DNA of 64,000 nt from an uncultured Actinomycetota bacterium (GCA_963829525.1 CAWHIJ010000003.1:2327833-2391832); one strand, 5' to 3'; counted from the first letter of the stretch, positions 16,685-50,849 are shown. The notes: generated by a model from the letters alone, not told the origin. Numbers and translations: made by a program.

Positions 16685-17557
16685 TCAGGCGTAGACGCGG
16701 AACCCGCGCGTCGACTTCCGGCCGAGGTACCCGGCGGTGACGAGGTGTTCGAGCAAAGGCGCGGGAGCGTACCCAGGCTCACGGAACTCGAGGTAAAGCG
16801 TCCGCTGAATGGCCAGTGCGACGTCTAGCCCCACGACATCGAGCAGCTCGAACGGCCCCATCGGATATCCGCAGCCGACCTTCATCGCATTGTCGATGTC
16901 GTCAGCGGTCGCGTAGTGCGCCTCAAGCATCCGCACTGCATCATTCAAGTACGGGAAGAGCAGAGCGTTGACGATGAACCCGGCACGGTCGCCACACGTG
17001 ACCGGATGCTTGCCGACCCGCTCGCAGACCTGGCGGACCGTCTCGACCACCTCGGGGCCGGTGTTGATGGTGTGCACCACCTCGACCAGCTTCATCACCG
17101 GCGCCGGGTTGAAGAAATGCATACCGACGACGTCCCTCATCCGGGCTGTCGACGCCGCGATCTCGACGATGGGCAGACTCGAGGTGGTGGTTGCCAAGAT
17201 CGCGCCGGGCTTGGCTAGCTCGTCCAGCGTGGCGAAGATCGCCTGCTTGACCGAAAGCTCCTCAACTGTCGCCTCCAGGAAGAGGTCGCAGTCAGCGAGG
17301 TCATCGAAGGAGGTACTGCCGCTGAAACGTCCGAGTGCGGCATCGCGCTCCTCCTCGGTGATCTTCCCTCTGACGACGGCTTTCTCCAGGGATTTGCCTA
17401 TAGAGAGCCGCGCCTTGTCGATCTGCTCCGTACCGCGCGCGCGAAGCACCACGTCGTACCCGGCCTTGCAGAAAACCTCAGCGATCCCCACGGCCATCGT
17501 TCCTGAGCCAACAACTCCGACCCGTTGGATGGGACGCGGCCTCTGAGCCATCGCCAT
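16685..17557 (-). CDS. hbd: 3-hydroxybutyryl-CoA dehydrogenase (3-hydroxyacyl-CoA dehydrogenase, NAD-binding)
   Basis: Rossmann VGVVGSGTMAVGIAEV, HFFNPAPVMKLVEVV, C-terminal GRKSTRGFRVY. Confidence 0.85.
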   Translation of the reverse strand: MAMAQRPRPIQRVGVVGSGTMAVGIAEVFCKAGYDVVLRARGTEQIDKARLSIGKSLEKAVVRGKITEEERDAALGRFSGSTSFDDLADCDLFLEATVEELSVKQAIFATLDELAKPGAILATTTSSLPIVEIAASTARMRDVVGMHFFNPAPVMKLVEVVHTINTGPEVVETVRQVCERVGKHPVTCGDRAGFIVNALLFPYLNDAVRMLEAHYATADDIDNAMKVGCGYPMGPFELLDVVGLDVALAIQRTLYLEFREPGYAPAPLLEHLVTAGYLGRKSTRGFRVYA

Positions 17558-18462
17558 TCGGCACCGGTGTCTGTGCATCGGCGACGAAAGCCGGTGACCC
17601 CGGTGCCTCGTAGGTGTAGAAGCCGCGTCCGGTCTTGCGACCCTTCACGCCGGCCGTCACCATCTGCTTGATGATCGGAGCAGGGGCGTGGAGGCGGTCA
17701 CGCGTCTGCTTGTACATCGTGTCGAGGATCTCGTAGGCGGTATCGAGCCCGATCAGGTCGAGCAGCGCGAGGGGTCCCATCGGAAGGCCGCAGCCCAGCT
17801 TCATCGCGGCATCGATGTCTTCACGCGTCGCGTAGCGCTGCTCATACATCGCAGCGGCATGGTTGAGGTAGCCGAAGAGAAGCGCGTTGGCGATGAAGCC
17901 TGCCTTGTCGCCCACGACGACGGGAACCTTGCCGAGTCGCTCGCTGAGCGCTTTGACGTCGTCGATCACCTGGGCGTCAGTGACGACGGTGCGGATGACC
18001 TCGACGAGCTTCAGAACCGGAGCCGGGTTGAAGAAGTGCATGCCGACCACCTGGGCCGGCCGATGCGTCGCCACCGAGATCTCGGTGACCGACAACGACG
18101 AGGTGTTTGTGGCGAGGATCGCGTCGGGGGCCGTGATCCGGTCGAGCTCGGCGAAGATCTGCTGCTTGAGCTCAAGCTTCTCTGGTACTGCCTCGACCAC
18201 CAGGTGGCAGTCCGCCAGGTCCTCCAGCGACGAGGTAAAGGTGATCCGGTCAAAGATCGCCTGCTTCTCCTCTTCCGAGAGCTTGCCGCGCTTGACCGCT
18301 CGCGAGGTGGACGTCTCGACGTGCTCGATGCCACTGGGCAATGCGCGACTCGTCACGCTCGACGGCGACGACCTCGAGGCCGTTGCGTGCGAACACTTCC
18401 GAGATGCCCGCTCCCATGGTGCCGAGGCCGACAACCCCGACCCGGGTGAACTCACGTGCCAT
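17478..18462 (-). pseudogene. second tandem 3-hydroxybutyryl-CoA dehydrogenase paralog, reading frame broken by a 1-nt frameshift near 18345
   Basis: N-terminus (VGVVGLGTMGAGISEVFARNGLEVVAVE) is in the ORF 18250-18462, the rest (IEHVETSTSRAVKRGK...GRKTGRGFYTY) is in the +1 frame; the 3' end overlaps the next hbd gene by 80 nt; may be a sequencing artefact. Confidence 0.7.
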
Positions 18463-18587
18463 GACCTACTCCTGTGCTGCAACCTGCCGGGACTGGGCCC
18501 GGAGCGAGAGCGCGTCAGGCATGACGCCGCCACGACGATCCTCCCACCCCCACGTCAGGTTGGCTGGACCCCGGGTAGCGTGATGGC

Positions 18588-19266
18588 GTGCGCCTGGTCA
18601 TTGCCCTTTGCAGCGTGGATTACGTGGGCCGACTCAACGCCCATCTGCCCATGGCAATGCGTCTCATTCTGGTCAAGTCCGACGGATCGGTGTCGATCCA
18701 CGCCGACGACCGGGCGTACAAGCCGCTCAACTGGATGAGCCCCCCGTGCCGCACGACCTTTGACGTTGACGACGCCGGGATCGGCACCTGGGTAGTCAGC
18801 CATACCAAGACGGGTGACCAGCTGACGATCACGATCGAAGAGGTCCTCCACGACAGCGAGCACGAGCTCGGCATCGATCCCGGTCTGCAGAAGGACGGGG
18901 TCGAAGCCCACCTGCAGGCGCTCCTCGCTGAGCACATCGAGTCGATCGGCAAGGGGTGGACGCTCATCCGGCGCGAGTACGGAACGGCCATCGGACCGGT
19001 GGACATCATGGCGCGTGACGCCGATGGCGCGTCCGTTGCCATCGAGATCAAGCGGCGCGGCGACATCGACGGCGTTGAACAGCTCACCCGGTACCTCGAA
19101 CTCCTCAACCGCGATCCGCTCTTGGCTCCGGTTCGTGGAGTGTTCGCCGCTCAGGAGATCAAGCCACAGGCCAAGGTCTTGGCTAACGACCGCGGAATTC
19201 GAGTGCTTCACCCTCGACTACGACGCCCTCCGCGGCCGTGACAAGCCCGAGGATCGGCTCTTCTGA
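18588..19266 (+). CDS. nucS: endonuclease NucS (EndoMS, mismatch-specific), C-terminus displaced by a 1-nt frameshift near 19205
   Basis: near-identity to mycobacterial NucS (MRLVIA.C.VDY.GRL.AHLP...[11 protein letters not shown]...[17 protein letters not shown]...[24 protein letters not shown]); the conserved C-terminal tail [17 protein letters not shown] is read in the +1 frame ending at 19266, while the in-frame ORF stops at 19241. Confidence 0.8.
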
Positions 19267-19330
19267 CTTCTCCGCAGACGGCTGGCCACTCACGAGCAGC
19301 AGCCGGTCAGCACGCCCTACATTGGCCGAT

Positions 19331-19495
19331 ATGCCAAACGACCCGAATCTCGAACGCAGGATGAACCGGCTCGAGAACGAGACCGTCGCGATCTACGAAC
19401 TGATCGACGACTTCCGCAGCGAAACACGGACCCGCTTCGACCGGATAGAGACCACCCTGGGTGAGGTACTACAACGACTCCCCGAACCAACCTGA
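19331..19495 (+). CDS. small hypothetical coiled-coil protein
   Basis: 54 aa from ATG 19331 (MPNDPNLERRMNRLENE...); position equivalent to small hypothetical genes after nucS in mycobacteria; weak. Confidence 0.3.
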   Translation: MPNDPNLERRMNRLENETVAIYELIDDFRSETRTRFDRIETTLGEVLQRLPEPT

Positions 19496-19638
19496 CAGGC
19501 CAACCCCAGAACGCGACAGTCAGATCGCGGCCAGACCCGGCACCTCGAGCTCCTCAACCGCCATCTGCTGCCGAGCAGACGCTCTGCTCCCTGCCGAACG
19601 GCTCTTGCGCAGCCCAGGAGGATCCGTAGGCTGAGCGC

Positions 19639-20031
19639 ATGGCTGGATTCCTGGACAAGGCGAAGCAAGTTGCACAGCAGGCGCTCGACGAGGCGAAGAA
19701 GGGCGTTGAGACCGGTCAGGCCAAGTTGGATGACGTGCAGGCGAAGAAGGAAGCCGGCCGCGTCCTCACAGCCCTCGGTGCCGCGTTTTACGCCGAGCAG
19801 CGCACGGGTGGACCGCGCAGCGACGTCGATTCGGCACTGAAGGCGGTCGATGAGTATGTGACGGTGAACGGCACAAGCGGTTTCCCGAATGACGAGGAGT
19901 CGGCACCGCCTCCCCCGCCACCAGCTCCCGCACCGATGCCTGCCCCCACTCCTCCGCCGACGCCCCCCGCATCACCGCCGCCTCCGACGCCCGCTGGCGG
20001 TTCGGCCTACGATCTTCCCCCTAGCCCCTAG
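19639..20031 (+). CDS. hypothetical protein with proline-rich C-terminal tail
   Basis: 130 aa, RBS ggagga upstream, C-terminal PPPPPPAPAPMPAPTPPPTPP low-complexity region. Confidence 0.4.
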   Translation: MAGFLDKAKQVAQQALDEAKKGVETGQAKLDDVQAKKEAGRVLTALGAAFYAEQRTGGPRSDVDSALKAVDEYVTVNGTSGFPNDEESAPPPPPPAPAPMPAPTPPPTPPASPPPPTPAGGSAYDLPPSP

Positions 20032-20052
20032 CCCCAGCCCCTGCCCGAAGCG

Positions 20053-20679
20053 TCAGCCGACGCCATTCCGTTCGGCCCAGACGGCAGCTTGGGTCCGGTC
20101 GAGCACCCCGATCCGTTGAAAGCACGACGTCAGGTGGGCCTTGACCGTCCGCTCGGTTATCCCCAGGCGTCGGGCGATCTGCTTGTTCGACAGTCCCTGC
20201 CTCACGAGCCCAAGCACCTCGGTCTCGCGGGCAGTGAGTTCGACCCTGACCCGTGATGGCTTCTCTGCGCGTGCCGATAGAAGCTCGCGGGCCGCGCGCG
20301 GATGCAGCGGCGACTCCCCTCTGGCAGCAGCCCTGACTCCCGCAAGAATCTCGTCAGGGGAGGCGTCCTTGAGCAGGTAGCCGACGGCCCCGGCGTCGAT
20401 CGCTCCTACGATCCGGTCACGGTCGGAGAACGAGGTGACGATCACCACTGCAATCTCGGGGTGGGCCTCACCGAGTGCCGCAGTCGCCGCGACGCCGTCC
20501 ATCACCGGCATCTGCAAGTCCATCAGAATCACATCAGGGTTCATGAGTTCAGCCAGCTCGATGGCTTCCGCTCCGTTGACGGCGAGCCCCACGACTTCGA
20601 TATCGGAGGTGCTAGCCAGCAGCTGCTGCAGGCCAGCGCGCAGCATCGAGTGGTCGTCGACAACCAGGACCGAGATCAC
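20053..20679 (-). CDS. two-component response regulator, NarL/FixJ (LuxR HTH) family
   Basis: receiver domain (VLVVDDHSMLR...D...LMDLQMP) plus C-terminal LuxR HTH (LTARETEVLGLVRQGLSNKQIARRLGITERTVKAH). Confidence 0.85.
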   Translation of the reverse strand: MISVLVVDDHSMLRAGLQQLLASTSDIEVVGLAVNGAEAIELAELMNPDVILMDLQMPVMDGVAATAALGEAHPEIAVVIVTSFSDRDRIVGAIDAGAVGYLLKDASPDEILAGVRAAARGESPLHPRAARELLSARAEKPSRVRVELTARETEVLGLVRQGLSNKQIARRLGITERTVKAHLTSCFQRIGVLDRTQAAVWAERNGVG

Positions 20680-22437: not shown

Positions 22438-22629
22438 GGTGTCCTCCAGGGATCGAGATGGGGGCTTGGTCAGAGACATGCCGTTTCCGAACACCCTTAG
22501 CGTCAGCCACGCGTAGTGCAGTTCGCCATTGTCCCGTAGTACTAGGACCTCTGCATGAGCCAGTGATCGGTTTGGGCTCATGCCTTCGATCACAGGAGCG
22601 GACGGGCGCGACTGGCGCGGGAGGGATGA

Positions 22630-24664
22630 CTAGAGGTCGGCCACGACAAGGCCGTGTGCCCGACGGATCTCTGCCACGATACGCAGCATGATGTCGTCGA
22701 TCGTGTAGTCCTTCGGTGTAAAGACAGCAGCAACGCCCAGAGCTTCGAGAGCCGCGGAGTCGGACTCAGGAATGATGCCGCCAACGACAAGAGGCACATC
22801 GCTCATGCCCGCGGCCCTGATCCGAGACAGCACCTCCGGCACAAGTTCCATGTGTGAGCCCGAGAGCACCGACAAGCCAACAACGTGGACGTCTTCCTCC
22901 ACCGCCGCGGCGGCGATCTGCTCTGGTGTCAGCCGGATCCCCTGGTAGACCACCTCGAACCCTGCATCACGTGCACGCACCGCGATCTGCTCGGCTCCGT
23001 TGGAGTGCCCGTCGAGTCCGGGCTTGCCGACGAGAAACCTCAGCCGGCCCCCGAGTTCAGCCGCCGTCTTCTCGACGGCCGCCCTAACCGCCTCGCCGGA
23101 TACGGAGTCCCCAACGGACGCGGTCTGCGACGAGACTCCTGTTGGCGCGCGGTACTCGCCAAACACGCCCCGCAGCGCGTCCGCCCATTCGCCTGTCGTC
23201 ACGCCGGTCCTGGCACATGCCAAGCTCGCCGGCATCAAGTTCTCACCCGAAGCCGCATCCTTGCTCAGTTTCTCCAAGGCAACGGCTACCGCAACGTCGT
23301 CCCGTTCGGCTCGCCAACTGGCGAGAGCCTCGACTGCACGCTCCTCGACGTCGGCAGCGACGCGTCAGGACCGCGCTGTCGAGGTCGGACAGCAACGGGT
23401 TCGGCTCGGTCGTCGTGAACCGGTTGAGTCCGACAACGACAGCATCTCCCGACTCGATGGCACGACGCCGCTCGGCGTGGGACTGCACGAGGGCTGTCTT
23501 CATGTAGCCGGACTCAACAGCAGCCAGGGCACCGCCGAGCCGCTCGATTCGCGCCATCTCGTCTCGCGCGCCCACCACAAGCTCGCCGACCTTGGCGGCC
23601 ACGACCGGGGAGCCATCGAAGAGGTCGCCGTACTCCAACAGGTCGGATTCAAAGGCCAGCACCTGCTGCATGCGGAGCGACCATTGCTGGTCCCAGGGCC
23701 GAGGCAGGCCGAGAGCTTCGTTCCAGGCAGGCAGTTGAATGGCTCGAGCCCTGGCATCCTTGGACAGTGTGACCGCCAGCATCTCGAGCATGATGCGCGG
23801 CACGTTGTTCTCTGGTTGAGCCTCCGTAAGCCCGAGAGAATTGACCTGCACGCCGTACCGGAACCGCCGCTGCTTCGCGTCCGTGATGCCATAGCGATCT
23901 GCGGTGATCTCGTCCCACAGCTCCACGAAGGCACGCATCTTGCACATCTCCTCGACGAAACGCACCCCAGCGTTGACGAAGAACGAGATGCGCTGGACCA
24001 CTTCGCCGAAGCGTTCTGGCGGCACCTGGCCGGAATCGCGAACGGCGTCGAGCACGGCAATCGCTGTACTCAGGGAGAACGCCAGCTCTTGGACCGGGGT
24101 GGCACCGGCCTCCTGCAGGTGATAGCTGCAGATATTCGTCGGGTTCCATTGGGGAACGTTTGCCACCGTGTAGGTCACCATGTCGGTGATCAGCCGCAGC
24201 GATGGGCCGGGCGGGAAGACATACGTCCCGCGCGACAGGTACTCCTTGATGATGTCGTTCTGTGTCGTTCCCTGAAGTGCGGCTGGATCGACGCCCTGTT
24301 CCTCGGCCACCGCGATGTAGAGGGACAACAGCCACATAGCCGTGGCGTTGATCGTCATCGACGTATTCATCTCGTCAAGCGGGATGCCCTCCATCAGCGA
24401 GCGCAGGTCGCCGAGGTGGGTGACCGGAACGCCGACCTTGCCGACCTCTCCGCGCGCCAGCTCGTCGTCGGGATCGTAGCCGGTCTGCGTCGGCAGGTCG
24501 AAAGCGATCGAGAGCCCCGTCTGCCCCTTGGCCAAGTTCTTGCGAAAGAGCGCGTTCGACGCAGCAGCAGAGGAGTGTCCGGCGTACGTGCGCATAACCC
24601 AGGGTCGGGTCGTGCTCCCGTCCGCTGACTCACTGCGAGTAGGGGTCGATGGGTCGTTCGCCAT
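22630..24664 (-). pseudogene. meaA: ethylmalonyl-/methylmalonyl-CoA mutase family protein with fused C-terminal B12-binding domain (MeaA/Ecm-like), interrupted by a 1-nt frameshift near 23355
   Basis: catalytic domain (MRTYAGHSSAAASNALFRKNLAKGQTGLSIAFDLPTQTGYDPDD...) in ORF 23243-24664; the linker and B12 domain (DVEERAVEALASWRAERDD...ENLMPASLACARTGVTTGEWADALRGVFGEYRA...GKPGLDGHSNGAEQIA) continue in the +1 frame to 22630; the YAGHS signature is MeaA-like from memory; the frameshift may be an assembly error. Confidence 0.75.
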
Positions 24665-26108: not shown

Positions 26109-26428
26109 ATGCCGACCTGGGGCAGCTATTCCTACGTGTACGGACCGCTCATGGCGCTGGTCGCCATCGGTGTCTTCGTGCTCGTTCTTCGTTGGGCCTT
26201 CGGTCGAGGCAGCTCGGTCGTGGAACGCCCGCCTCTGAGCGGCAACCCCGACCAGTACGGGCTGCTCGACTCCGTCGCATCACCGGGCACTTACATCGAG
26301 GCCGAGATCCTGAGGAGCGACTGGACGCCAGTGGGATCAAGGCGACCGTTGCGATGACCAATGACGGACCGCGGCTCATGGTCTGGCCCGAAGACCGAAG
26401 CAGGGCAGAGTCCATCGTCGGCAGTTGA
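26109..26428 (+). pseudogene. small conserved membrane protein (actinobacterial, unknown function) with a frameshift near 26330
   Basis: N-terminal part with TM segment ([31 protein letters not shown]) in frame 26109-26357, conserved C-terminal part ([31 protein letters not shown]) in the neighbouring frame ending at 26428. Confidence 0.4.
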
Positions 26429-26439
26429 CAGCGTCTGCC

Positions 26440-27759
26440 GGTGGGCGGGGTCAGCCGAAACGCTCCGGCCGGGTCGTCCTCTCGGACGATCTTGGCGCCG
26501 AGCACTCGGAGTTGCTCGTCGAACTTGGGGTATCCACGGTCGATGTGGTGGATCTCGCTGACGATGGTCTCGCCCTCGGCCACCAAGCCAGCGATCACGA
26601 GCCCGGCACCAGCGCGAATATCGGGGGTCGTGACCGGCGCACCCGAAAGCAGGGGACGCCCACGCACGACCGCGTGGTGGCCGTCGGTGCGGATATCAGC
26701 ACCAAGTCGGGCAAGCTCGTTGACAAACGAGAACCGGGATTCATAGACGTTCTCCGTCACCATCGCAGTGCCGGAGGCCACAGCGTTGAGGGCCAGGGCC
26801 ATGGGAAGCAGGTCCGTCGGAAATCCAGGGAATGGCAGCGTCACTGCATCTACAGCCGTGGGACGGCGATCCATCATGACTCGGAATCCATCGTGAACTC
26901 GGTCGACAGTGGCGCCTGCCGTCACCAGTTTGTCGAGGGCAATCTCAAGGTGTGCCGGATTCGCGTTGTGCACTGTCACATCACCGAGCGTCATCGCCGC
27001 AGCCATCGCCCACGTACCGGCCACGATGCGGTCCGCGACGGTCGCGTGAGAGACCGGTTGCAACGAGTCGACGCCGACGATGACGAGCGTCGAAGTTCCG
27101 GCACCTTCAATCTGGGCTCCCATGTGGCCCAGCATCACGCAGAGGTCGACGATCTCTGGCTCGCGAGCCGCATTGTCGATCTCGGTACAGCCGTCTGCCA
27201 GGACCGCAGCCATCACGAGGTTCTCGGTCGCCCCAACACTAGGAAAATCAAGCCATATCGTGGCACCGGTCAGCTGCTTGGCCTTAGCCACGATGAAACC
27301 GTGCTCGTTCTCAACCGTCGCGCCCATCTTGAGCAGACCGGCGATGTGGAAGTCGAGAGGACGTGAGCCGATGGCGTCGCCACCCGGTAGTGCAACGTCA
27401 GCTTCGCCGGTACGGGCCAACAGTGGGCCCAGAACCGCAATGGACGCTCGCATCCGCCGCACGAGGTCGTAGTCAGCACGGTGCTCAACCTTTTGCGGGA
27501 CATCGATCGTGACGGTTGCCGCATCGCGGTCACGGTGCACACCGCATCCGAGTCGTCGAAGAAGCTCGGACATGATGGTGACGTCGAGGATGTCGGGCAC
27601 CTCGCTCAGTGTCGTTACGCCGGGAGCAAGCAGTGCCGCGGCCATCAGCTTGAGGACCGAGTTCTTGGCCCCGGTGACCTGTACGTCACCTGCGAGGCGA
27701 GCGCCACCGGTCACCCGAAACCGCTGCGGGCGCGCGATGGCTGCATTGGCGGTCTCCAC
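26440..27759 (-). CDS. murA: UDP-N-acetylglucosamine 1-carboxyvinyltransferase
   Basis: MurA blocks throughout ([57 protein letters not shown]); the uninterrupted ORF runs to 26149 (536 aa) but similarity ends near 26460, so the 3' end is approximate and a terminal indel is suspected. Confidence 0.85.
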
Positions 27760-32423: not shown

Positions 32424-34058
32424 TCACTTGACCTTCTTGGTGATCTGGGTCGGGTCGATCTCTTGCTCTTCGAGCGACTCCACAGGAACATCCTTCACGA
32501 GCAGTTCACCGGATGTGGTCGTGAACTGGGACTTGAAGGCGTCGATCGCTTTCTCCAGCTCAGCCACCGTGTCGTCACCCAACACCTTGGTCTCACGAAT
32601 GACGTCGAATACTCCGGCGTGGCTTCCGTGGACGTAGTCGAGGAACTCCGCATCGAAACGTTTGATGTCCTCAACGGGAACCTCGTCCAACTTACCGGTT
32701 GTTCCGCTCCAGATCGAAACGACCTGACGCTCGACCGACTGGGGTTGGTATTGCGGCTGCTTCAGCAACTCGACGAGCCGTGCACCTCGCTCAAGAGATG
32801 CCTTCGAAGCCTTGTCGAGGTCGGAACCGAACGCCGCGAACGCCTCAAGCTCACGGAACTGTGCCAAGCTGAGTCGCAGGTTTCCGGCCACCGATCGCAT
32901 GGCCTTGACCTGGGCGGAGCCACCGACGCGGGACACCGAGATTCCGACGTTGATCGCTGGGCGGACACCAGAGTTGAACAGGTCCGTCTCAAGGAAGATC
33001 TGGCCGTCGGTGATAGAGATGACGTTGGTCGGGATGTAGGCCGACACGTCATTGCCCTTGGTCTCGATGATCGGTAGGCCAGTCATCGAACCCGCACCGA
33101 GCTCGTCAGAGAGCTTCGCGCACCGCTCCAGGAGCCGCGAGTGCAGGTAGAAGACGTCGCCGGGATATGCCTCGCGGCCCGGCGGCCGGCGGAGGAGGAG
33201 CGAAACCGTGCGGTACGCCTCGGCCTGCTTGGAAAGGTCATCGAACACGATCAGAACGTGCTTCCCCTGGTACATCCAGTGCTGACCGATGGCAGAACCC
33301 GTGTACGGGGCGATGTACTTAAAGCCTGCCGGGTCAGATGCCGGGGCGGCGACGATGGTCGTGTATTCAAGCGCGCCGGCCTCTTCGAGGGCACCACGCA
33401 CACCCGCGATGGTCGAGCCCTTCTGACCGACGGCGACATAGATGCAACGCACCTGCTGGTCGGGGTCGCCAGATGCCCAGTTCTCGCGCTGGTTGATGAT
33501 CGTGTCGATGGCCACGGCGGTCTTGCCGGTCTGGCGGTCACCAATGATCAGCTGGCGCTGACCGCGACCGATGGGGGTCATCGCGTCGACGGACTTCAGG
33601 CCTGTCTGCAGCGGTTCCTTGACCGGCTGGCGCTGCACCACACTGGGAGCCTGCAGCTCAAGGGTGCGTCGCCCCTCAGCCTCGACGGGGCCAAGACCAT
33701 CGATGGGGTTACCCAGCGCGTCAACGACCCGGCCGAGGAACGCATCGCCGACGGGGGCGGAGAGGATCTCGCCGGTCCGGCGGACGTCCTGGCCCTCAGC
33801 GATATGGCTGAACTCTCCGAGAAGTACCGTGCCGATCTCGCGCAAGTCGAGGTTGAGCGCGATCCCACGCAGCCCACCCTCGAACTCGAGGATCTCGTTC
33901 GTCATCGTCGAGGGGAGCCCCTCCACGCGCGCGATGCCGTCACCGCACTCAAGTACCCGACCGACCTCGGTACGAGAGGCAGCCTCCGGGGTGTACGACG
34001 AGACGAAGCGCGACAACGCGTCCTTGATCTCTTCGGGCCGGATCGTGAGTTCCGCCAT
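32424..34058 (-). CDS. atpA: F1 ATP synthase alpha subunit
   Basis: P-loop GDRQTGKT, 544 aa. Confidence 0.95.
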
Positions 34059-35597: not shown

Positions 35598-35831
35598 TTA
35601 CTTCAAGAAGAACGGAGCAACCAGACCGATCAGGGCCAGCGCCTCGATCAGCGCGAATGCGGTGAACGCCCAGGTGCGGAGAATGTTCAGCGCCTCCGGC
35701 TGGCGAGCAATGCCGCTGATGAAGGCAGCAAAGACCAGTCCCGCACCGATACCAGAACCGATGGCGGCGAGACCAAAGGTGACCGGAGTCAGGTTGCCTG
35801 AGAGCGCCAGGACGTTGGATGAGAAATCCAT
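35598..35831 (-). CDS. atpE: Fo ATP synthase subunit c
   Basis: 77 aa hairpin, GxGxGxG helix 1, ion-binding Glu in ALIEALALIG. Confidence 0.85.
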   Translation of the reverse strand: MDFSSNVLALSGNLTPVTFGLAAIGSGIGAGLVFAAFISGIARQPEALNILRTWAFTAFALIEALALIGLVAPFFLK

Positions 35832-35876
35832 TGGGTGTTCCCTTTCGGTTCGTGACGCGCCAGTTGCGTCATCGGT

Positions 35877-36662
35877 CTAGTGACCCTCGTTCACGGCGCC
35901 GCTGATGTACAGCGCCGTGAGGAGAGCGAAAATGTAGGCTTGGAAGAGTTCGATAAAGAGCTCGAAAAGACTCATGACGATGGCCACCCCGCCGGTGAGC
36001 AGCCCAGCGGCCTTCAGCGCTGGATTGGCTGCCTCAAAGATCATGTACTCGGCCCCGGTGACGAACACCAGAAGCAGCATGTGCCCGGCGAACATGTTGG
36101 CGAAGAGTCGCAGGGTCAGCGTGAAGGGCCGGATGAACAGAATCGTCAGCAGCTCGATCGGTGCGAGGATCGGATAGACAAACCAAGGGACCCCTGGGAT
36201 GAACATGACGTCTTTGAAGTAGCGGACGAAACCCTGACGCCGGATTCCAGCGACGTTGTAGACCACCAGAACGATGATGGCCAGCACCATCGGGAACGCG
36301 ATGTGTGCCATCGGGGGAAATGAGACGAACGGCGTCACACCGAACACGTTGTTCACCATGATGAAGGTGAACAACGTGAAGAGGAGCGGCACGAAGTTCA
36401 TGAACTCCTTCGAACCGATGATGTCGCGGCCAATCCCGTTGCGAACGAAGTTGTACAGCAGCTCGCCAGTGAACTGCATGCGCCCTGGCACCATTGCCGG
36501 ACGACGCACAGCAGCCCACAGGAACGCACTGATGATGAAGACGCTGACAATCACCAGCAGAATGGCTTTGTCGAACCATGCCACTTGCCCAAAGATTTCT
36601 GGTGGGAAGACCTCTTCAGCACCGGGAGGGACGTAGCCGTCGGCGACGAACGAACCGATCAC
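35877..36662 (-). CDS. atpB: Fo ATP synthase subunit a
   Basis: 261 aa polytopic protein, conserved Arg in LTLRLFANMFAGH. Confidence 0.85.
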   Translation of the reverse strand: MIGSFVADGYVPPGAEEVFPPEIFGQVAWFDKAILLVIVSVFIISAFLWAAVRRPAMVPGRMQFTGELLYNFVRNGIGRDIIGSKEFMNFVPLLFTLFTFIMVNNVFGVTPFVSFPPMAHIAFPMVLAIIVLVVYNVAGIRRQGFVRYFKDVMFIPGVPWFVYPILAPIELLTILFIRPFTLTLRLFANMFAGHMLLLVFVTGAEYMIFEAANPALKAAGLLTGGVAIVMSLFELFIELFQAYIFALLTALYISGAVNEGH

Positions 36663-36967
36663 CGACTATCTCCTTCAGCCATGGGGGGACTGCTCCCGTT
36701 CTGCTCTTCGACCAACACGTCGGACGGCACACGCACGACTCTCAGATACACCAGGTACCCACCCGCTAGGCACCCCACGACGATGCCGAGTGGTGTCAGC
36801 ACGCCCGTATGGAGCGAGCGGTCCAGCCAAACACCAACCCCACCAAAAATGAGAAGCCCGGCAAGGATGTATCCGCCAGCCGCCTCCGCACTAGCTGAGG
36901 TTGACCCTGATCTCATACCCCCTGATGCACTGCCAGGAGTACGTCCAGGAAGGTCTGCCTGATCCAT
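36659..36967 (-). CDS. AtpI/AtpZ-like small membrane protein of the atp operon
   Basis: two TM segments (YILAGLLIFGGVGVWL, LGIVVGCLAGGYLVYL) immediately upstream of atpB; start codon uncertain (ORF extends to 37057). Confidence 0.4.
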   Translation of the reverse strand: MDQADLPGRTPGSASGGMRSGSTSASAEAAGGYILAGLLIFGGVGVWLDRSLHTGVLTPLGIVVGCLAGGYLVYLRVVRVPSDVLVEEQNGSSPPMAEGDSR

Positions 36968-37037
36968 GGTGTGAGGAATGTAGCAGCCGGGACATGAGGG
37001 CCACAAAGCGAGTCCGGGCCCATCGCTGTGAGACCTA

Positions 37038-37514
37038 TCACGCTGCCGGCGGGTCATCCTCCTGGGTAGTTCTTGGTGCGTCCGCGGCAGGTAGGTCGAA
37101 GTAGAAGGAACGGGTGCGTATGGATGCCACCGTCAATGCCACAACCCCGGTCACTGTGGTGACGACCACCGTCACAGCCGAGGCATGCAGGTCAAGGGTC
37201 GTCCAGCGGGAAAGGGCCCACAGCGCAGCCGCGATGAACAGGACCTTGAACACATACTCAGTCAGGAGCGCCAAGGCGGTGAAGGCTGGCGGCATGTGGC
37301 GGATGGCCCGTAGCACCAGGACGTCGACACCGAAGAAGAAGACCACGAGTCCGAGCCCAGCCAGGGCAGCCAGGGCGGCCCCGACGCCGTCGGCCAGCAG
37401 AAAGAACATGATGGAGATGACCCCGGCCGCCAGAGCCCAGGGGGCCGACTGACGCAGCAACGCACCGGCCAGATGCTCCGATCTCAATCCGCTGGACGAC
37501 GCATTCGACATCAC
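37038..37514 (-). CDS. hypothetical integral membrane protein between wecA and the atp operon
   Basis: 158 aa, four hydrophobic segments; same position as the small hypothetical membrane protein between rfe and atpB in mycobacteria. Confidence 0.4.
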   Translation of the reverse strand: MMSNASSSGLRSEHLAGALLRQSAPWALAAGVISIMFFLLADGVGAALAALAGLGLVVFFFGVDVLVLRAIRHMPPAFTALALLTEYVFKVLFIAAALWALSRWTTLDLHASAVTVVVTTVTGVVALTVASIRTRSFYFDLPAADAPRTTQEDDPPAA

Positions 37515-38593
37515 CGATCACTCCTCACTGGGCGGCGGGTCAAGACGATGGCGAAGAGCAGAATGCCGAGGCCAACGAGGAGACCGACTTCAACGCCGGC
37601 GAAAGCCGCAGTGGCTGCCCCAACGGCGAGGGCGCTGGCCCAGAGGTACATGACCAGGACCGCCTGCCGCTGGCTGTGCCCGATCTCGAGCAGGCGGTGA
37701 TGCAGGTGCTGCTTGTCCGGCGCAAACGGCGAGCGTCTCGCTCTCGTTCGCCGCACCACCGCGAGAAGCAGGTCCACGAGAGGAACTGCGAGCACGGCGA
37801 ATGGCAGGAGCAGAGGCATCAGCGCTGGGAGCAGTGTCGCGTCAACGGAGTAGGGGTCGATCTTGCCGGTCAAGGTGATCACCGACGCTGACAAGAGCAG
37901 GCCAGCCAGCATCGAGCCCGAGTCACCCATGAAAATCCGAGCCGGGTTGAAGTTGTGGGGCAAGAAGCCGGCGCAGATCCCCGCCAGAACGCTGGAGAGG
38001 AGGGCGGCGGTCGTCGCCCTGTCGATTCCTTGGTCTACCGAAAGCAGGTAGGCGAAGGCGAAGAAGGCCAGCGAGCCGATGCCGATGATACCGGCGGCGA
38101 GGCCGTCGAGTCCGTCGACGAAGTTGATTGCATTCACCGTCACGACAACGAGCAGCACCGTCAGAATGACGCTGGCGTTGTATGGAAGAACTGTGACGCC
38201 GTTGAACGGCAGCCAGAGCAGCTGAACTCCGAGCAGCACCATCACACCGGCCGCAATGATCTGGCCCGCTGCCTTGGTGAGGGCGTCCAGGCCCCAGATG
38301 TCGTCGATGACTCCGACCAGGAAGATCAAGGTCCCTCCGGCGATCACCGCCCAAGCGTCTCGAGATTCGGTGAAGACGGCCGAGACGAACCCGAGCTGGC
38401 TGGCCACGAGCATCCCGGCCAGGAACCCGAGGTACATCGCGACACCACCCAGTCGCGGGATCGGAACATCGTGCACGTCGCGGTCGCGGATCTCGGCCAT
38501 GACGTGCCACCTGACTGCGTACCAGCGGACCACCGGCACCGTGACGTAGGTGATCGCAGCTGATGCGAGCAGAACCAGGAGGTACTCGCGCAC
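37511..38593 (-). CDS. wecA: UDP-GlcNAc:undecaprenyl-phosphate GlcNAc-1-phosphate transferase (glycosyltransferase family 4, MraY-like)
   Basis: polytopic; conserved DDxxD-type and VFMGDSGS motifs; GTG 38593 with RBS aggaag chosen instead of the Arg/Ser-rich upstream extension to 38767. Confidence 0.8.
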   Translation of the reverse strand: MREYLLVLLASAAITYVTVPVVRWYAVRWHVMAEIRDRDVHDVPIPRLGGVAMYLGFLAGMLVASQLGFVSAVFTESRDAWAVIAGGTLIFLVGVIDDIWGLDALTKAAGQIIAAGVMVLLGVQLLWLPFNGVTVLPYNASVILTVLLVVVTVNAINFVDGLDGLAAGIIGIGSLAFFAFAYLLSVDQGIDRATTAALLSSVLAGICAGFLPHNFNPARIFMGDSGSMLAGLLLSASVITLTGKIDPYSVDATLLPALMPLLLPFAVLAVPLVDLLLAVVRRTRARRSPFAPDKQHLHHRLLEIGHSQRQAVLVMYLWASALAVGAATAAFAGVEVGLLVGLGILLFAIVLTRRPVRSDR

Positions 38594-41236: not shown

Positions 41237-42094
41237 CAGCGAGATCCGCGTCGAGCCGAGACAAACCGGTCGCGGCCTGCCAGATCGGCATGGTCAGTGA
41301 CGTCAAGCCATGAGCCGGCCACAGTGAAGATCTGCGGCACAGACTCCCCCTGGAGGTCGCCGTGCTCGGCCACGACCCAACCGCCCGGCCTAAGCAAGCG
41401 CTTCGCTGACTGCTCGACAAGCCGCGTGTGGGAGAGGCCATCAGGACCGGAGTAGAGCGCCATGGCTGGATCGAACCGGGCTACCTCGGGGTCGCGCGGG
41501 ATGCAGTCGTTGGGGATGTAGGGAGGGTTGGCTACGACCACGTCGACCTGGCCGGTCAGCTCTGGAAGACAATCTTCGATGTCGGCCAGGTGCGGCGTGA
41601 AGCCGTGGGTGCGGGCGTTGCGCTCAAGCCAAGGACCGGCCCCAGGATCGCGTTCAACCGCATGCACCTGAGCCCCCGGCGCCTCGACGGTGACCGCAGC
41701 TGCCATCGTGCCGGCGCCCGCACAGAGGTCGACAACAACCGGATGTGGGAGATCTAGCGCTGCGAGCAGATCAAGAGCGTGGCCCACGACCACCTCGGTC
41801 TCGGGCCGAGGCGAGAAGACGCCGGGCCCGACTGCCAGGGTCACAGTGCGGAAGTGCGCCCACCCGGTCAGGTGCTGGAGGGGGATTCGCTCAGCCCGGC
41901 GTGCGACGAGGTCGTCGAACCCCGCGGGCGCGGCAACATCGAGATGGTTCCAGAGACCACCCCGACCAACTCCGAGGAGGTGGGACGCGAGCAGCTCTGC
42001 GTCAACCGCGAGGAGACCGAACCCCGCACTCAGCCAGATGCAGCTCTGCCGCTCGGAGCGCATCCCGCAGAGACCGGCCCTGACCTGCCGGCAA
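41236..42094 (-). pseudogene. prmC: release-factor glutamine methyltransferase PrmC (HemK), frameshift near 42005
   Basis: NPPY motif (VVVANPPYIP) and SAM-binding VVDLCAGAGTMA in frame ending at 41236; conserved N-terminus (RSLRDALRAAELHLAECGVRSPR) is in another frame beginning at TTG 42094, 21 nt after the prfA stop; frameshift probably artefactual. Confidence 0.75.
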
Positions 42095-42115
42095 GGGCGG
42101 AGGTCCTGATGCTGG

Positions 42116-45356: not shown

Positions 45357-45701
45357 ATGTTCCGGTGCGTCGGAAGTGACGCCGGAGGGGATCCTGGCGC
45401 GTCGTTCGGCGTCAGGAGGTGGAGCGTCGCCGGAGTCAGAGAGGCCGGCGGAGACCGGTACCGGAGTGAAGGAATCCCAGTTGCTGAGCGATCAGATGGG
45501 AACTTGAGTGAACCAACTTCTGAACGCAACAGCTTCCATCAAAAAGCATCAGGATCTGAGATGAGGAAGACACTCGGGATACCCGGTGTGTTGCCACCGT
45601 AACACCTCGCGTGACCCCGATGTTCCCGGGGGGTCTAGATCTCTATCGGCGTGTCGCCGCGCCACCTGAACCCCACAACCCCCGGTGATGCCGGTGACGG
45701 G

Positions 45702-46601: not shown

Positions 46602-46612
46602 CGGGGCCGCCA

Positions 46613-47695
46613 CTAGTCGGTCAGCCCCAGCAGGGAAGCAGCAGCGCGCGCGTCGTTTTCGACTGTCACCGGCTGCGGAGCGCCAGCGATCGCCCAGTCG
46701 GGATCCTTCAGACCGTGACCGGTGACGGTACACACCACCCTCTGCCCTGCATCGAGCAAACCAGCGTCCGACTTCTTGAGCAGGCCAGCCACGCCTGACG
46801 CCGACGCCGGTTCGACAAAGACGCCCTCCTGCGAAGAGAGCAGTCGATATGCGGAGAGGATCTCGCGATCGGTCACGGCGTCAATCAGGCCAGCGGACTC
46901 GTCGCGTGCCTCGAGGGCGTACTGCCACGAAGCAGGGTTGCCGATCCTGATCGCTGTGGCGACCGTCGACGGCTTCGGCACCACCTCGCCACGGACGATC
47001 GGTGCAGCCCCTGCCGCCTGAAAGCCCCACATGCGTGGGCGGTGGGAGGCCATCGCATCGTCGGCGTACTCGCGGTAGCCCCTCCAGTAGGCGGTGATGT
47101 TGCCCGCGTTCCCAACCGGGAGCGCGTGGATGTCTGGCGCATCCCCCAACTGATCGACAATCTCAAATGCGGCCGTCTTCTGTCCTTCGATCCGCGCCGG
47201 GTTCACGCTGTTGACCAGGGCAACCGGATACTGCTCGGAAAGCTCGCGTGCCAACGTCAGGCAGTCGTCGAAGTTGCCATCGACCTGAATCAGGCGGGCG
47301 CCGTGGGCCAGGGCCTGGCTCAGCTTGCCGAGCGCGATCTTGCCCTGGGGGACGAGCACAGCGCAAACCATCCCGGCGCGGACGGCGTAGGCAGCAGCAC
47401 TGGCACTGGTGTTGCCCGTCGATGCACAGATTACGGCGCGGGCGCCTTCTTCGGCCGCCTTCGAGATCGCCATCGTCATACCGCGGTCCTTGAAGGAGCC
47501 GGTGGGGTTGGCGCCTTCGACCTTCAGCCACACCTCGCAGCCGGTCCGCTCGGAGACAACGTGGGCGCGCACCAACGGCGTGCCACCCTCTCTCAGCGAG
47601 ACCACCGGTGTCGCGTCACTGACGGGCAGTCGCTCGCGGTACTCGTCGATGATTCCGCGCCACTGCTGGGTCCTTTGTGTCAACACAGTGCTCAC
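46613..47695 (-). CDS. thrC: threonine synthase
   Basis: PLP-lysine motif ([13 protein letters not shown]), 360 aa. Confidence 0.9.
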
Positions 47696-48990
47696 TCTCC
47701 CACCACCCGCATGATCGACGTGATCCGCCGGACCGAGTCAAGACCCTGGAGGCTCTTGCACGTCTCCGCCAGCTGCTTCTCCTGAGCCTCATGCGTGACG
47801 ATCTCCAGGCTGGCGTCTTCCCCGTGCCCCTCTTGTCGCAGCGTCTCGATGCTCACGTCGTGCTCGGCGAACACCGCGGCCACGGAGGCCAGGACGCCTG
47901 CCTTGTCGGTGAGGTCGAGTGCGATGTAGTAGCGCGTCAACGACTCGTCCACCGACAGGACCGGGAGAGCTGCGTACGTCGACTCGCGCGGGCCGTGTCC
48001 ACCGCTGATGCGGTTGCGGGCAACCGCGACGATATCTCCGACCACCGCGCTTGCAGTAGGTGCTCCACCGGCACCGGGACCGTAGAACATCAGCTGACCG
48101 GCGGCGTCCGACTCGACGAAGACCGCGTTGTAGGCATCACGGACCGCAGCAAGAGGGTGATGGCGCGGGACCATCGCTGGGTGTACCCGAACGTTGATGC
48201 CGCGGCCGTCAACAGATCGCTCGGCAACCGCAAGCAGCTTGACGACGTGCCCGGAGTCCCTCGCCGCCGAGACGACATCGGCCGTGACGGCCGAGATGCC
48301 CTCGCAGTAGACGTCGGCCAGCGTGACCCGCGAGTGGAAGGCCAGGCTGGCGATGATGGCAGCTTTGGCAGCCGCGTCATGCCCCTCGACATCGGCAGAG
48401 GGGTCCGGCTTCTCCGCATATCCGAGCTCTTGCGCCTCTGCCAGCGCGTCGTCGAAGGAGGCGCCGCTTTCGTCCATCTGCGTGAGGATGAAGTTGGTCG
48501 TTCCGTTCACGATTCCCAGGACCCGTTGCACACGGTCACCGGCCAACGACTCGCGCAGTGGTCGCAGCAGCGGGATGGCGCCCGCAACGCTCGCCTCGAA
48601 GTAGAGGTCGAGGCCAGCAGCGTCGCAGGCCTCGTGAAGCTCGGCACCATGCTGGGCCAGCAGTGCCTTGTTGCCTGTGACGACGCTCGCACCTGAGGCG
48701 AAGGCGTCCAGGATGAGCTGCCGGGCGGGGTTGATCCCACCCATGAGCTCCACAACGATGTCGGCGCCGCGGCCGGTGACAAGTTCCTGGAGGTCGTCGG
48801 TGACCAAAGCAGGGTCGATCCAGGGGCCGCGGTCGACCCCGGTACGTCGAACGCCGACGCCGACCAGTTCGAGGGGAGCGCCAATGCGGGCCGTGAGGTC
48901 GGGAGCCTGCTCCACGAGCAGGCGCGCGACCTCCGAGCCGACGATACCGGCGCCGAGCAGCGCAATCTTGAGCGGCTCAGCGCTCATCAA
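47692..48990 (-). CDS. hom: homoserine dehydrogenase with C-terminal ACT domain
   Basis: N-terminal NAD(P) fold [15 protein letters not shown], 432 aa, 4-nt overlap with thrC. Confidence 0.9.
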
Positions 48991-49038
48991 TCCTCCCGTC
49001 GGTCGACTCCGGTTGTGACCCAGAGCGTTCCCGAGCAG

Positions 49039-49422
49039 CTATGCATCGCCCTCGGGAGCTTGCAGGTCAAGCCTCCCATGAGCGACGACACAGAACTCAT
49101 GCCCCTCTGGGTCAGCCATCGTCTGCCACTCCACCCCATGGGCCGCCACCGGAGCACCGAGCCGTCTGGCTCCCAGGGACTCCAGCAGTCGGACGTGGTT
49201 GGCCGCATCGGCTGGATGGACGTCGAGGTGCATGCGGTTCTTCCCGCTGCGCTCCTCGGGTACCGGCTGCAAGATCAGGATCGGACCCTCCGGTTCACCC
49301 TCGGCTGGAGCCAAAATGCGGTAACCGTCAGCCCGGTCGACCAGCCGGTAGCCGAGCGCCGCTTCCCAGAAGGGCACCAGGACATCGGGTTCCAGACAGT
49401 CCAGCACGACCGACACTCGCAT
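49039..49422 (-). CDS. VOC (glyoxalase/bleomycin-resistance) family protein
   Basis: 127 aa, paired beta-alpha-beta-beta-beta modules, weak family assignment. Confidence 0.5.
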   Translation of the reverse strand: MRVSVVLDCLEPDVLVPFWEAALGYRLVDRADGYRILAPAEGEPEGPILILQPVPEERSGKNRMHLDVHPADAANHVRLLESLGARRLGAPVAAHGVEWQTMADPEGHEFCVVAHGRLDLQAPEGDA

Positions 49423-49447
49423 GGGACCACCCTAGGCGCGTCTGAAC

Positions 49448-50849
49448 TCACGCGCCCGTGTCGAGAGCCAGAAGGTCGTCGACGGTTTCGCGGCGAATGA
49501 GCACCCGTGGTTCGCACGATGCCGACACCGCGACTACCGGAGGGCGACCAAGAAGGTTGTAGGTGGACGCCATGCTTCGGCAGTAAGCGCCGGTAGCAGC
49601 CACCGCGAGCAGATCGTCGGCCCGCACATCGTCGGGTAGCCAGGCGTCGCGCACCACGATGTCGCCGCTCTCACAGTGCTTGCCGACGACCCTGGCCAAC
49701 ATCGGTGCGGCGTCGGAGTGCCGATCGGCCACAACCACCGTGTAGTCGGCGTCGTAGAGCGCCGTGCGCGGGTTGTCGCTCATCCCGCCGTCGACGCTGA
49801 CGTAAGTCCGTGACGCCCCGGCGTCCAGCGCCACTTGCTTAACGGTGCCGACTTCGTAGACCGTCACCATGCTGGGACCGACAAGTGCGCGGCCAGGCTC
49901 AACGGCAAGCCGTGGCACCGAAAGCTCGAGAGGCCCGGCACTCACGCTCGACGATCGCGTGCAAGCTGATCGCGACGTCCTTGGTTTCGGCGGGGTCATC
50001 TGAAGGGACATAGGCGATGCCGAGGCCGCCTCCGAGGTTGAGCTCGGGAAGCTCGATGCCGTGACGCGCTCGCACGTCGGCCAGCAGTTCGACGGCTCGG
50101 TGGGCTGCCACCTCGAAGCCCGATGTATCGAAGATCTGTGAGCCAATGTGGGAGTGCACGCCGACCAGGTCAAGCGATGGTTGCAAGAGCACGAGCTCGA
50201 TAGCCCGAGCCGCGGAACCAGACGCGAGCTGAGAAACCGAACTTCTGGTCTTCGTGGGCCGTGGCAATGAACTCGTGAGTGTGCGCCTCGACGCCCACCG
50301 TCACTCGCACCAGTACTCGTTGCCGAACGCCGGCCTCCTCTGCACACCGTGCCAGTCGGCGGATCTCCTCTGTCGAGTCGATGACGACCCGCCCAACACC
50401 CAGCCCAACGGCGCGGGTCAGCTCTTCGACGGACTTGTTGTTCCCATGGAAGAGCACCCGCTCCATCGGGAAGTCGGCGCGCTCGGCGACTGCCAGCTCT
50501 CCCCCGGTCGCGACATCGAGACCCAGCCCCTCCTCCGCCACCCACCTGAGGAGCTCGACGCTGGTGAACGCTTTGCTCGCGTAGTAGACGTCCGTGCCCG
50601 TGAACGCATCGGCGTAGGCACGGGCCCGCCCACGGAAGTCTTCCTCATCGAGCAGAAAGACCGGAGTACCGAAGGACCTCGTGAGGTCGGAAACCAGGTG
50701 GCCGTGCAACTCGAGCTCGCCTGAGTCATCCCGCCGTGCACCGGCTGGCCAACGTGGCCACTGAGCGCGTTGAGGTTGGCCGGTGGTGCCGCGTGCACGG
50801 TGTCGCTGACGAGATCGCCGTGCCGAGGGCCGGCGGGATGGGCGCGCAT
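49448..50849 (-). pseudogene. lysA: diaminopimelate decarboxylase, split over four frames by three 1-nt frameshifts (near 50720, 50225 and 49915)
   Basis: N-terminus from ATG 50849 with RBS aaggag (MRAHPAG...APPANLNAL), then [12 protein letters not shown]...YYASKAF (frame of ORF 50170-50709), then [22 protein letters not shown]...GGGLGIAY (ORF 49899-50267), then [13 protein letters not shown]...CESGD (ORF 49448-50545); the gene is essential and the rest of the operon is intact, so these are almost certainly sequence errors. Confidence 0.8.

Follow-up and report, generated by a model that had tools for sequence, protein, structure and literature searches.

Clumped single-base frameshifts in seven conserved genes of an uncultured Actinomycetota bacterium are probably consensus errors from strain-mixed reads

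A 64,000-nt stretch of DNA from an uncultured Actinomycetota bacterium (hereafter the window) holds conserved genes whose reading frames are interrupted by single bases, which raises the question of whether these genes are decaying in the organism or were broken during genome assembly. Three-frame translation combined with base-level alignment to close relatives identified 11 single-base coding frameshifts in seven genes, with nine insertions and two deletions (Table 1). A first-pass annotation of this DNA had claimed at least nine such shifts; all nine are present, each 0-31 nt from where it had been placed, and the count proved slightly too low, as two more were found at 17537 (+1, hbd) and 42098 (+1, prmC). 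The shift expected in hbd near 18345 lies at 18346 (+1), that in nucS near 19205 at 19200 (+1), that in the mutase near 23355 at 23362 (+1), that in the membrane protein near 26330 at 26315 (-1), that in prmC near 42005 at 42006 (+1), and those in lysA near 50720, 50225 and 49915 at 50751 (-1), 50229 (+1) and 49927 (+1). A ninth, inferred at the murA 3′ end between 26460 and 26500, was pinned to 26462 (+1).

Table 1. Interrupted genes and the positions of their single-base shifts, in window coordinates; inserted bases of the hbd, mutase and murA shifts are given in gene orientation.
Feature	Position	Strand	Description	Basis
hbd, 591-aa two-module 3-hydroxyacyl-CoA dehydrogenase	16685..18462	-	cut into three ORFs by +1 at 18346 and 17537	
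hbd shift	18346	-	+1, G within codon 39, TCC to TCGC	alignment to L088
hbd shift	17537	-	+1, G following codon 308 (GCC), between modules	alignment to L088
nucS, corrected length 225 aa	18588..19266	+	+1 at 19200 replaces final 21 residues	translation
nucS shift	19200	+	+1, extra C following codon 204 (ATT)	alignment to L088
fused acyl-CoA mutase, corrected length 677 aa	22630..24664	-	cut by +1 at 23362	translation
mutase shift	23362	-	+1, C following codon 434 (ACG)	alignment to L088
small conserved membrane protein, corrected length 106 aa	26109..26428	+	1-nt deletion at 26315/26316	translation
small membrane protein shift	26315..26316	+	-1 in AGG-AAG; window has AGGAG	
murA, corrected length 435 aa	26451..27759	-	+1 at 26462, codon 433	
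murA shift	26462	-	+1, C within codon 433, GGT to GCGT	alignment to L088
prmC/hemK, corrected length 293 aa	41236..42119	-	+1 at 42098 and 42006	
prmC shift	42098	-	+1, G following codon 7 (TCC), at codon 8; splits C5 run	
prmC shift	42006	-	+1, G following codon 37 (CGC)	
lysA, corrected length 466 aa	49448..50849	-	three 1-nt indels: 50751 (-1), 50229 (+1), 49927 (+1)	translation
lysA shift	50751	-	-1, third-position base of codon 33 missing	
lysA shift	50229	-	+1, G following codon 207; window TCAG, close relatives TCA	
lysA shift	49927	-	+1, G within codon 308; window CGAG, close relatives CAG	

The exact positions also changed how some of these genes are described. What had been called a tandem hbd paralog is instead one 591-aa gene, which is present as an intact 591-aa ORF in the relatives L088, L182 and L183. 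The murA insertion abolishes the stop codon, so that the ORF runs on to 536 aa and overlaps the convergent gene of the membrane protein; with base 26462 deleted, MurA is 435 aa long and ends in DDPAGGFG, the end in L088 being DDPAAGFG and the length in L177 likewise 435 aa. In the fused mutase, the mutase domain is N-terminal and the B12-binding domain C-terminal. The operon partners hom, thrC, thrB and prfA are intact, as had been noted, and so is rho. The earlier description of the broken genes as otherwise intact and mostly essential stands in its first half once the frames are corrected, but only three of the seven (murA, lysA and prmC) are ones that we take to be plausibly essential.

Since a GC3 frame plot was too noisy at 65% GC, further shifts were sought by tblastn. 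No further frame switch was detected over the approximately 45 kb matched by relatives' proteins within 8.4-58.2 kb, where the largest stretch lacking a match is 35.6-37.5 kb; for the window's two ends, the assessment used only ORFs and partial matches to Pfam. Two overlapping ORF pairs, 5337-7360 (+) and 14608-16442 (-), were considered as additional frameshifts and rejected, as Pfam assigns them to separate genes. A 1-nt deletion at 11930 precedes the start of the thiolase gene as well as that of the epimerase gene and was therefore treated as intergenic rather than coding.

The close comparators were contigs assembled independently from the short-read metagenomes of several samples (ENA megahit, JGI), with approximately 92-98% DNA identity to the window. 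None of the five lysA and prmC indels occurs in the four to five short-read contigs that are 97-98% identical over 39.5-50.9 kb, and L088, which is 91-97% identical by segment over 10.9-26.5 kb, lacks the six indels of hbd, nucS, the mutase, the membrane protein and murA. The indels are thus absent from L002-L005, L169-L171 and L088, and relatives at 80-89% DNA identity (L001, L177, L180-L183) likewise carry intact genes. By gene, lysA is intact (466 aa) in L002-L005 and L180, with 353 C-terminal codons intact in L001; prmC is intact (293 aa) in L002/L168, L171 and L180, and its partial copies in L169 and L170 span both sites with no extra bases; nucS is intact (225 aa) in L088, L182 and L183; the mutase is intact in L088 (677 aa), L181 (671 aa) and L183 (670 aa); and the small membrane protein is intact in L088, L177, L181 and L183. 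This support comes from four close samples for lysA, whereas fewer samples back prmC and the genes that L088 alone covers. Six of the seven genes are intact in close short-read contigs. For murA, the exception, L088 extends over no more than the 19 final codons, and every complete intact copy belongs to a more distant relative. A Mycobacterium origin was considered in view of the gene order and rejected, as the closest relatives are MAGs of uncultured "Actinomycetes bacterium"; a scan of genome contigs with the mutase as query showed, among the matches listed, only relatives at approximately 80% amino-acid identity.

Single-base restoration against relatives, a check that the first-pass annotation had proposed, succeeded throughout: 11 one-base edits gave full-length LysA, PrmC, MurA, NucS, CoA mutase, 591-aa dehydrogenase and small membrane protein. 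Of the seven corrected proteins, six match curated NCBIfam models at full or nearly full length and above the curated cut-offs, with LysA covering positions 3-416 of 417 in TIGR01048, PrmC 1-252 of 253 in TIGR03534, MurA 2-416 of 416 in TIGR01072 and NucS 1-224 of 224 in NF002876. The mutase matches both TIGR00641 and TIGR00640, the models for its N- and C-terminal domains, and hbd contains two complete 3HCDH modules; the corrected small membrane protein matched no NCBIfam model. Within the genes, the corrected frames are free of in-frame stops, and no indel exceeds a single nucleotide.

We then considered the reading that these genes are real, very recent pseudogenes of this strain. The indels are present in the deposited record, none of the comparators is of the same strain, and three genes carry two to three hits each, as in decay; indeed, seven of the 11 shifts fall in these repeatedly hit genes, a pattern that counts against an assembly error and would also be expected of decaying pseudogenes. 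Nevertheless, the corrected genes are under strong purifying selection like their intact neighbours, with dN/dS of 0.16 for lysA, 0.18 for prmC, 0.048 for the mutase, 0.072 for nucS, 0.039 for the 591-aa hbd relative to L088 and 0 for the membrane protein, compared with 0 to 0.4 (median approximately 0.11) for the neighbours. Third codon positions hold 81% of the differences in the corrected frames, the small membrane protein differs from L088 at 10 synonymous and 0 nonsynonymous positions, and relaxed selection, with dN/dS approaching 1, was not seen in the broken genes. When lysA was polarised by an outgroup, the window branch had an N:S of 3:9 and the intact-gene branch 4:11. Non-coding DNA between the compared sequences shows at most approximately 0.07 indels per substitution, so three neutral indels in lysA should bring some 45 neutral substitutions, and these were not seen. 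In addition, murA, lysA and prmC are among the genes hit, whereas close relatives keep lysA and prmC and distant ones murA, and in-frame stops and larger deletions are both lacking. Real pseudogenes are therefore very improbable.

A variant of this reading invokes a burst of frameshifts under mismatch repair impaired by the nucS frameshift, and nucS is indeed among the genes hit. Loss of NucS raises transitions and is not known to raise +1 insertions, which counts against the variant. It is equally hard to credit a wild actinobacterial lineage that became a mutator when NucS lost its C-terminal tail and that then, in some regions of the genome, gained +1 insertions at approximately one per 3 kb. 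Such insertions would have included lysA, prmC and murA, in a lineage still abundant enough for a one-contig assembly.

The perfectly conserved downstream frames could also be accommodated if the frameshifts were programmed or tolerated and the proteins were restored by slippage of the ribosome or during transcription. The sites carry no slippery homopolymer or heptamer, and lysA would require three recoding events in one gene. None of the shifts is kept in any of the relatives obtained, so this explanation is effectively refuted and has next to no probability.

We conclude that the shifts are almost certainly assembly errors of some kind and not mutations in the organism. Intact relatives, purifying selection and restoration of the ORFs back this part of the first-pass annotation, and the frameshifts are best read as no real biological feature. 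Strain-specific real mutations are excluded statistically and not directly, by sequence comparison with relatives of which the closest are 2-4% divergent. The window's Hom and NucS proteins were located on one 2,941,646-bp contig, and the deposited NucS gene call (P0297) ends in a frameshifted tail, so the nucS shift is part of the deposited record. A single contig of 2.94 Mb is probably a long-read MAG.

Which kind of error is at work depends on the character of the indels. Random errors of the ordinary kind in a long-read consensus, caused by low coverage or missing polishing, would fit the long reads that the 2.94-Mb single contig suggests and the fact that every change is a single-base indel whose removal restores an ORF, and such errors are well documented (PMC12007338). 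Long-read consensus indels are normally associated with homopolymers, and deletions dominate in nanopore assemblies (PMC12007338), whereas here nine of the 11 events are insertions and none of the 11 coding indels extends a homopolymer run of three or more bases. The earlier statement that no shift sits in a long homopolymer is correct, and the insertions at 17537 and 42098 even split C runs. The inserted base is G or C in all nine cases, which also counts against random errors. A methylation motif was considered as the source of these G/C bases and rejected, as no motif is common to the ten contexts.

Further evidence against random errors comes from the identity of the inserted bases. In eight of the nine insertions, the extra base is identical to that found in other natural relatives at the aligned position immediately next to it. 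With a chance match rate of 0.17-0.23 per insertion site, the probability of eight or more matches in nine is 1.4e-5. The idea of a union of alleles was framed after two of the nine sites had been seen; for the seven sites not used to frame it P = 3e-4, and the three sites tested only afterwards all matched (3/3, P = 0.006). At the adjacent third codon position, L183 has G next to 17537 (ACG), L182 has G at 18346 (GCG) and L181 has C at 23362 (AGC), and L177, L181 and L183 have C at the second position adjoining 26462 (ACG or ACA). The codon at 19200 is ATC in L182 and L183, and the window has ATT followed by C; that at 42006 is CGG in L180 and L181. In L001 and L180, the codon at 50229 is TCG and that at 49927 is GAG, compared with TCA and CAG, respectively, in close relatives. 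Only the insertion at 42098, where a single outgroup is available, has no matching allele in the available relatives. At 18346, 17537, 23362 and 26462, the relatives that supply the matching allele have more than one difference in the codon concerned, and an odd TAT-to-TCT change adjoins the lysA insertion at 49927.

Both deletions likewise take out a position that varies among relatives. At 26315/26316, the following codon begins with A in L088 and with C in L177, L181 and L183, and at 50751 the codon is GTA in close relatives and GTC in L180. In total, 10 of the 11 shifts, all but that at 42098, adjoin or take out a site at which the available relatives differ. A real insertion has no cause to copy the alternative allele of a neighbouring site, which is a further point against pseudogenes, and random errors would have to match these alleles by coincidence.

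The events are also clumped rather than uniform, as random errors would be. A density of about one shift per 5-7 kb had been claimed, but the spacing is not even: six shifts lie in 17.5-26.5 kb and five in 42.0-50.8 kb, with an excess both of repeated hits (seven or fewer distinct genes, P = 0.006) and of pairs within 150 bp (P = 0.026). One pair, 26315 and 26462, lies 147 bp apart in two different, convergent genes, which fits a local read pile-up problem. Ordinary random errors are therefore unlikely, although less so than any of the biological readings.

Because insertions dominate, no homopolymer is extended and the inserted base equals a neighbouring allele, we favour a consensus artefact from strain-mixed reads as the probable cause. 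The genome would have been assembled, most likely from long reads of a metagenome, as the 2.94-Mb contig. Where co-occurring strains differ at a site, the consensus step may take the mismatch for an insertion plus a deletion; retaining both alleles in tandem would create a +1 shift, and retaining neither a -1 shift. We infer the long reads, the mixed-strain pile-up and the responsible consensus step alike. Indel errors at nearby allelic variants are documented in collapsed long-read assemblies (PMC8445201). A point against this explanation is that the indels do not resemble the homopolymer-associated type known from long-read assemblies (PMC12007338). Of the earlier attribution to an unpolished long-read consensus, the consensus error is upheld; the unpolished pattern does not suit a set with 9/11 insertions, no extended homopolymer and inserted bases that equal neighbouring alternative alleles.

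The main import concerns data quality. Gene prediction on this contig will yield fragmented proteins, and the deposited NucS call already has a frameshifted tail; "pseudogene" counts, auxotrophy predictions (e.g. lysine) and completeness scores for the MAG would mislead. The error signature, with both strain-level SNP alleles in tandem outside homopolymers in a G/C-rich, clumped pattern, is a modest technical point, but it can be recognised from the assembly and its relatives alone. It suggests that strain heterogeneity, and not raw read accuracy, lies behind the errors, for which the remedy is strain-aware polishing and not further polishing of the same kind.

In reductive genomes such as that of Mycobacterium leprae, a gene can carry several frameshifts with gene order kept, and both features recur here. 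Pseudogenes of that type show relaxed selection, stops and deletions, are common to related strains and spare essential genes; in contrast, the window's genes show no relaxed selection, stops, deletions or shared lesions, and plausibly essential genes are hit. Classic nanopore and PacBio consensus indels (PMC12007338) resemble these shifts in that single-base indels in a long contig break conserved genes and relatives reveal the correction, but they differ from the nine insertions and two deletions seen here, none of which extends a homopolymer and two of which split a C run. In the collapsed assembly of Trypanosoma brucei Lister 427 (PMC8445201), nearby allelic variants displace read alignments so that the consensus gains or loses a base, and ORFs were regained once the haplotypes were resolved. 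The window's indels similarly lie at sites variable among relatives, with the inserted base equal to the alternative allele, although in place of the diploid alleles of T. brucei the "haplotypes" would be those of a presumed mixture of co-occurring bacterial strains.

Three-frame translation, which reveals a conserved protein switching frame, was used to detect single-base coding frameshifts (shifts), and the exact base was placed by alignment to close relatives. The first-pass annotation had claimed at least nine such shifts, and we found that the conserved protein changes frame at every place it had named; shifts at 17537 and 42098 are additional and bring the total to eleven. The shift that had been inferred at the murA 3′ end is real, as removing the extra base cuts a run-on ORF of 536 aa down to a MurA of 435 aa with DDPAGGFG-stop at its end (compare DDPAAGFG-stop in the JGI contig L088), and MurA of the relative's contig L177 is also 435 aa. 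What had been called a tandem hbd paralog proved not to be one: the two adjacent "hbd" ORFs at 16685-18462 (-) are a single gene, here hbd591, encoding a 591-aa dehydrogenase with two complete 3-hydroxyacyl-CoA dehydrogenase modules, which is unbroken in L088 and in two further relatives' contigs (L182, L183) and occurs in the same fused form in distant genera, e.g. Terrabacter and Geodermatophilus, at ~70% amino-acid identity. A frame-switch scan with the proteins of eight relatives, matching ~45 kb within 8.4-58.2 kb, gave no additional coding frameshifts. In the largest stretch that it left unmatched (35.6-37.5 kb) a separate check showed atpB in one frame throughout, and nothing broken was seen at the remaining window ends from ORF structure and, for some genes, Pfam hits.

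Shifts placed by base-level alignment, with aligned codons and the NCBIfam match of each corrected protein (+1, extra base; -1, missing base)
Gene	Position	Shift	Close relatives	Other relatives	Window	NCBIfam match, corrected
hbd591	18346	+1	TCC	GCG	TCGC	two complete 3HCDH modules
hbd591	17537	+1	GCC	ACG	GCCG	
nucS	19200	+1	ATT	ATC	ATTC	NF002876, positions 1-224 of 224
CoA mutase	23362	+1	ACG	AGC	ACGC	N-terminal and C-terminal domain models
small membrane protein	26315	-1				none
murA	26462	+1	GGT (window, corrected)	ACG or ACA	GCGT	TIGR01072, positions 2-416 of 416
prmC/hemK	42098	+1				TIGR03534, positions 1-252 of 253
prmC/hemK	42006	+1	CGC	CGG	CGCG	
lysA	50751	-1				TIGR01048, positions 3-416 of 417
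lysA	50229	+1	TCA	TCG (L001)	TCAG	
lysA	49927	+1	CAG	GAG (L001)	CGAG	

The comparators were contigs from relatives. Contigs assembled from short reads of several samples in ENA and JGI (L002-L007, L169-L176), mostly at 97-98% DNA identity, each span part of 39.5-50.9 kb, with L002/L168 spanning all of it; L088 covers 10.9-26.5 kb at 91-97% identity by segment, and L001, L177 and L180-L183 share roughly 80-89% DNA identity with the window. In every comparator contig that reaches them, the affected genes are unbroken. Single-base correction against relatives, the check proposed in the first-pass annotation, yielded seven full-length ORFs from eleven edited bases, and curated NCBIfam models align to six of the seven along all or nearly all of their length.

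We considered whether the broken genes could be real pseudogenes, which should likewise accumulate repeated shifts such as those in lysA, prmC and hbd591. In corrected frames, dN/dS was 0.16 for lysA, 0.18 for prmC, 0.048 for the mutase, 0.072 for nucS, 0.039 for hbd591 and 0 for the small membrane protein, and intact neighbour genes ranged from 0 to 0.4. Nd/Sd summed to 63.5/257.5 over the affected genes and to about 83/249 over unaffected genes from these alignments; third codon positions account for 81% of the differences seen in the affected genes, and no in-frame stops lie inside them once the frames are corrected. With the frames corrected, the evolution of the broken genes resembles that of the intact genes around them. 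Polarising the lysA changes against the outgroup L001 assigned 3 nonsynonymous and 9 synonymous changes to the window's own branch and 4 and 11 to the intact-gene branch. Non-coding DNA in these alignments has no more than about 0.07 indels for each substitution, so that dozens of neutral substitutions, mostly nonsynonymous, should accompany three neutral indels in lysA; these are absent from the gene. Pseudogenes would have to be extremely recent, without any other trace, and would have to include murA, lysA and prmC; the selection analysis and the alleles found at the shifts both speak against them. The unbroken genes of relatives, the restored ORFs and the purifying-type dN/dS support the original reading of assembly indel errors. 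We conclude that the frameshifts are an artefact and not a biological feature.

At two lysA sites, 50229 and 49927, comparison with L001 showed a natural single-nucleotide difference of which the window carries the two alleles in tandem. From these sites arose the idea that an insertion represents the two alleles of a variable position written side by side; more relatives were added afterwards and codons were tabulated at every site. In 8/9 insertions the added base is the one that some other natural relative carries at the aligned position immediately beside it, the sole exception being 42098, where there is one divergent outgroup to compare. With a chance rate of 0.17-0.23 per site, obtained over every junction of these genes against these outgroups, the probability of 8 or more matches of 9 is 1.4 × 10−5; the seven sites left after the two behind the idea are set aside give P = 3 × 10−4, and the three tested only afterwards match in 3/3 cases (P = 0.006). 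Both deletions drop a position that varies among relatives (GTA vs GTC at 50751, AAG vs CAG at 26315). Single-site matches are weak, since several come from codons differing at more than one position, but the aggregate is not. Adjoining the 49927 insertion, lysA codon 307 (49930-49932), which encodes a conserved Tyr in all relatives (TAT or TAC), is TCT (Ser) in the window, which suggests that the local consensus error there also includes a substitution.

This allele pattern is consistent with a consensus to which at least two co-occurring strains contributed reads, and in which a mismatch between strains would be rendered as an insertion plus a deletion and both alleles, or neither, would survive. 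The inserted base is G or C in 9/9 cases, a bias that strain mixture explains because the variable sites of this genome are mostly G/C third positions. Strain mixture also accounts for the clumping of the shifts (six within 8.9 kb and five within 8.7 kb, with none detected in matched sequence between the clumps or over the 7.4 kb that follow; P = 0.006 for as few as seven affected genes and P = 0.026 for the pairs closer than 150 bp) and for the pair of shifts, 147 bp from each other, that hits two separate genes in convergent orientation. Affected genes tend to differ more from the comparators at synonymous sites than intact neighbours do, which would fit local strain diversity.

Six more 1-nt indels relative to close relatives are intergenic (11930, 18527, 20030, 20049, 45505 and 45628), that at 45505 being absent also from L172, which is 98% identical; natural variation or an error of this type could account for them. 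Frameshifted essential genes occur in other deposited assemblies of the lineage, since in the public metagenome contig L178 (JGI Ga0499959_0001894, 561-2224) atpA is itself split into 278 + 283 aa by a 1-nt gap relative to the window near 33396. Against otherwise ~97%-identical relatives, synonymous divergence reaches 0.5-1.3 in argS, hyp118, EamA and TetR (51.7-55.7 kb) and 0.44 in nucS (18588-19266), compared with 0.03-0.17 in neighbouring genes; the argS-to-TetR block and nucS look like recombination imports. Across atpE and atpB (35598-36662) no nucleotide match was found, and the ATP synthase a and c subunits have just 56-61% protein identity to L181; AtpG has 91% identity to P0123, a closely related protein. 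Composition is at its most extreme for the window (AT skew 0.256, G+C down to 0.617) in 36001-38000, a stretch that covers the membrane-protein genes upstream of atpB. Gene content varies among close relatives: L088 lacks the window's Na/Ca-exchanger gene (14593-15712) and has an additional 362-aa ORF between nucS and hbd591 (8037-9238), and in L177 (8041-8607) and L181 (16089-16646) a RibD_C gene separates murA from the gene for the small membrane protein.

The gene order of the window (G+C 62-67%), lysA-hom-thrC-thrB-rho-rpmE-prfA-prmC ... atp operon ... murA ... nucS, recalls Mycobacteriales, but its closest proteins come from uncultured "Actinomycetes bacterium" MAGs. Its homoserine dehydrogenase (P0001, 100% identical) and NucS call (P0297) lie on a single 2,941,646-bp NCBI/ENA contig, most simply a long-read metagenome-assembled genome. 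We infer both the long-read origin and the strain mixture, and a strain-mixed consensus is the likely mechanism rather than plain homopolymer noise. The result is a warning for users of this contig and provides a recognisable error signature. Indel errors at nearby allelic variants have been documented in collapsed long-read assemblies of a diploid (PMC8445201). Most long-read errors are described as indels associated with homopolymers, deletions being the prevailing type in nanopore assemblies (PMC12007338); in contrast, the window has nine insertions and two deletions, and 0/11 shifts lengthen a homopolymer, with two of the insertions splitting a C run.
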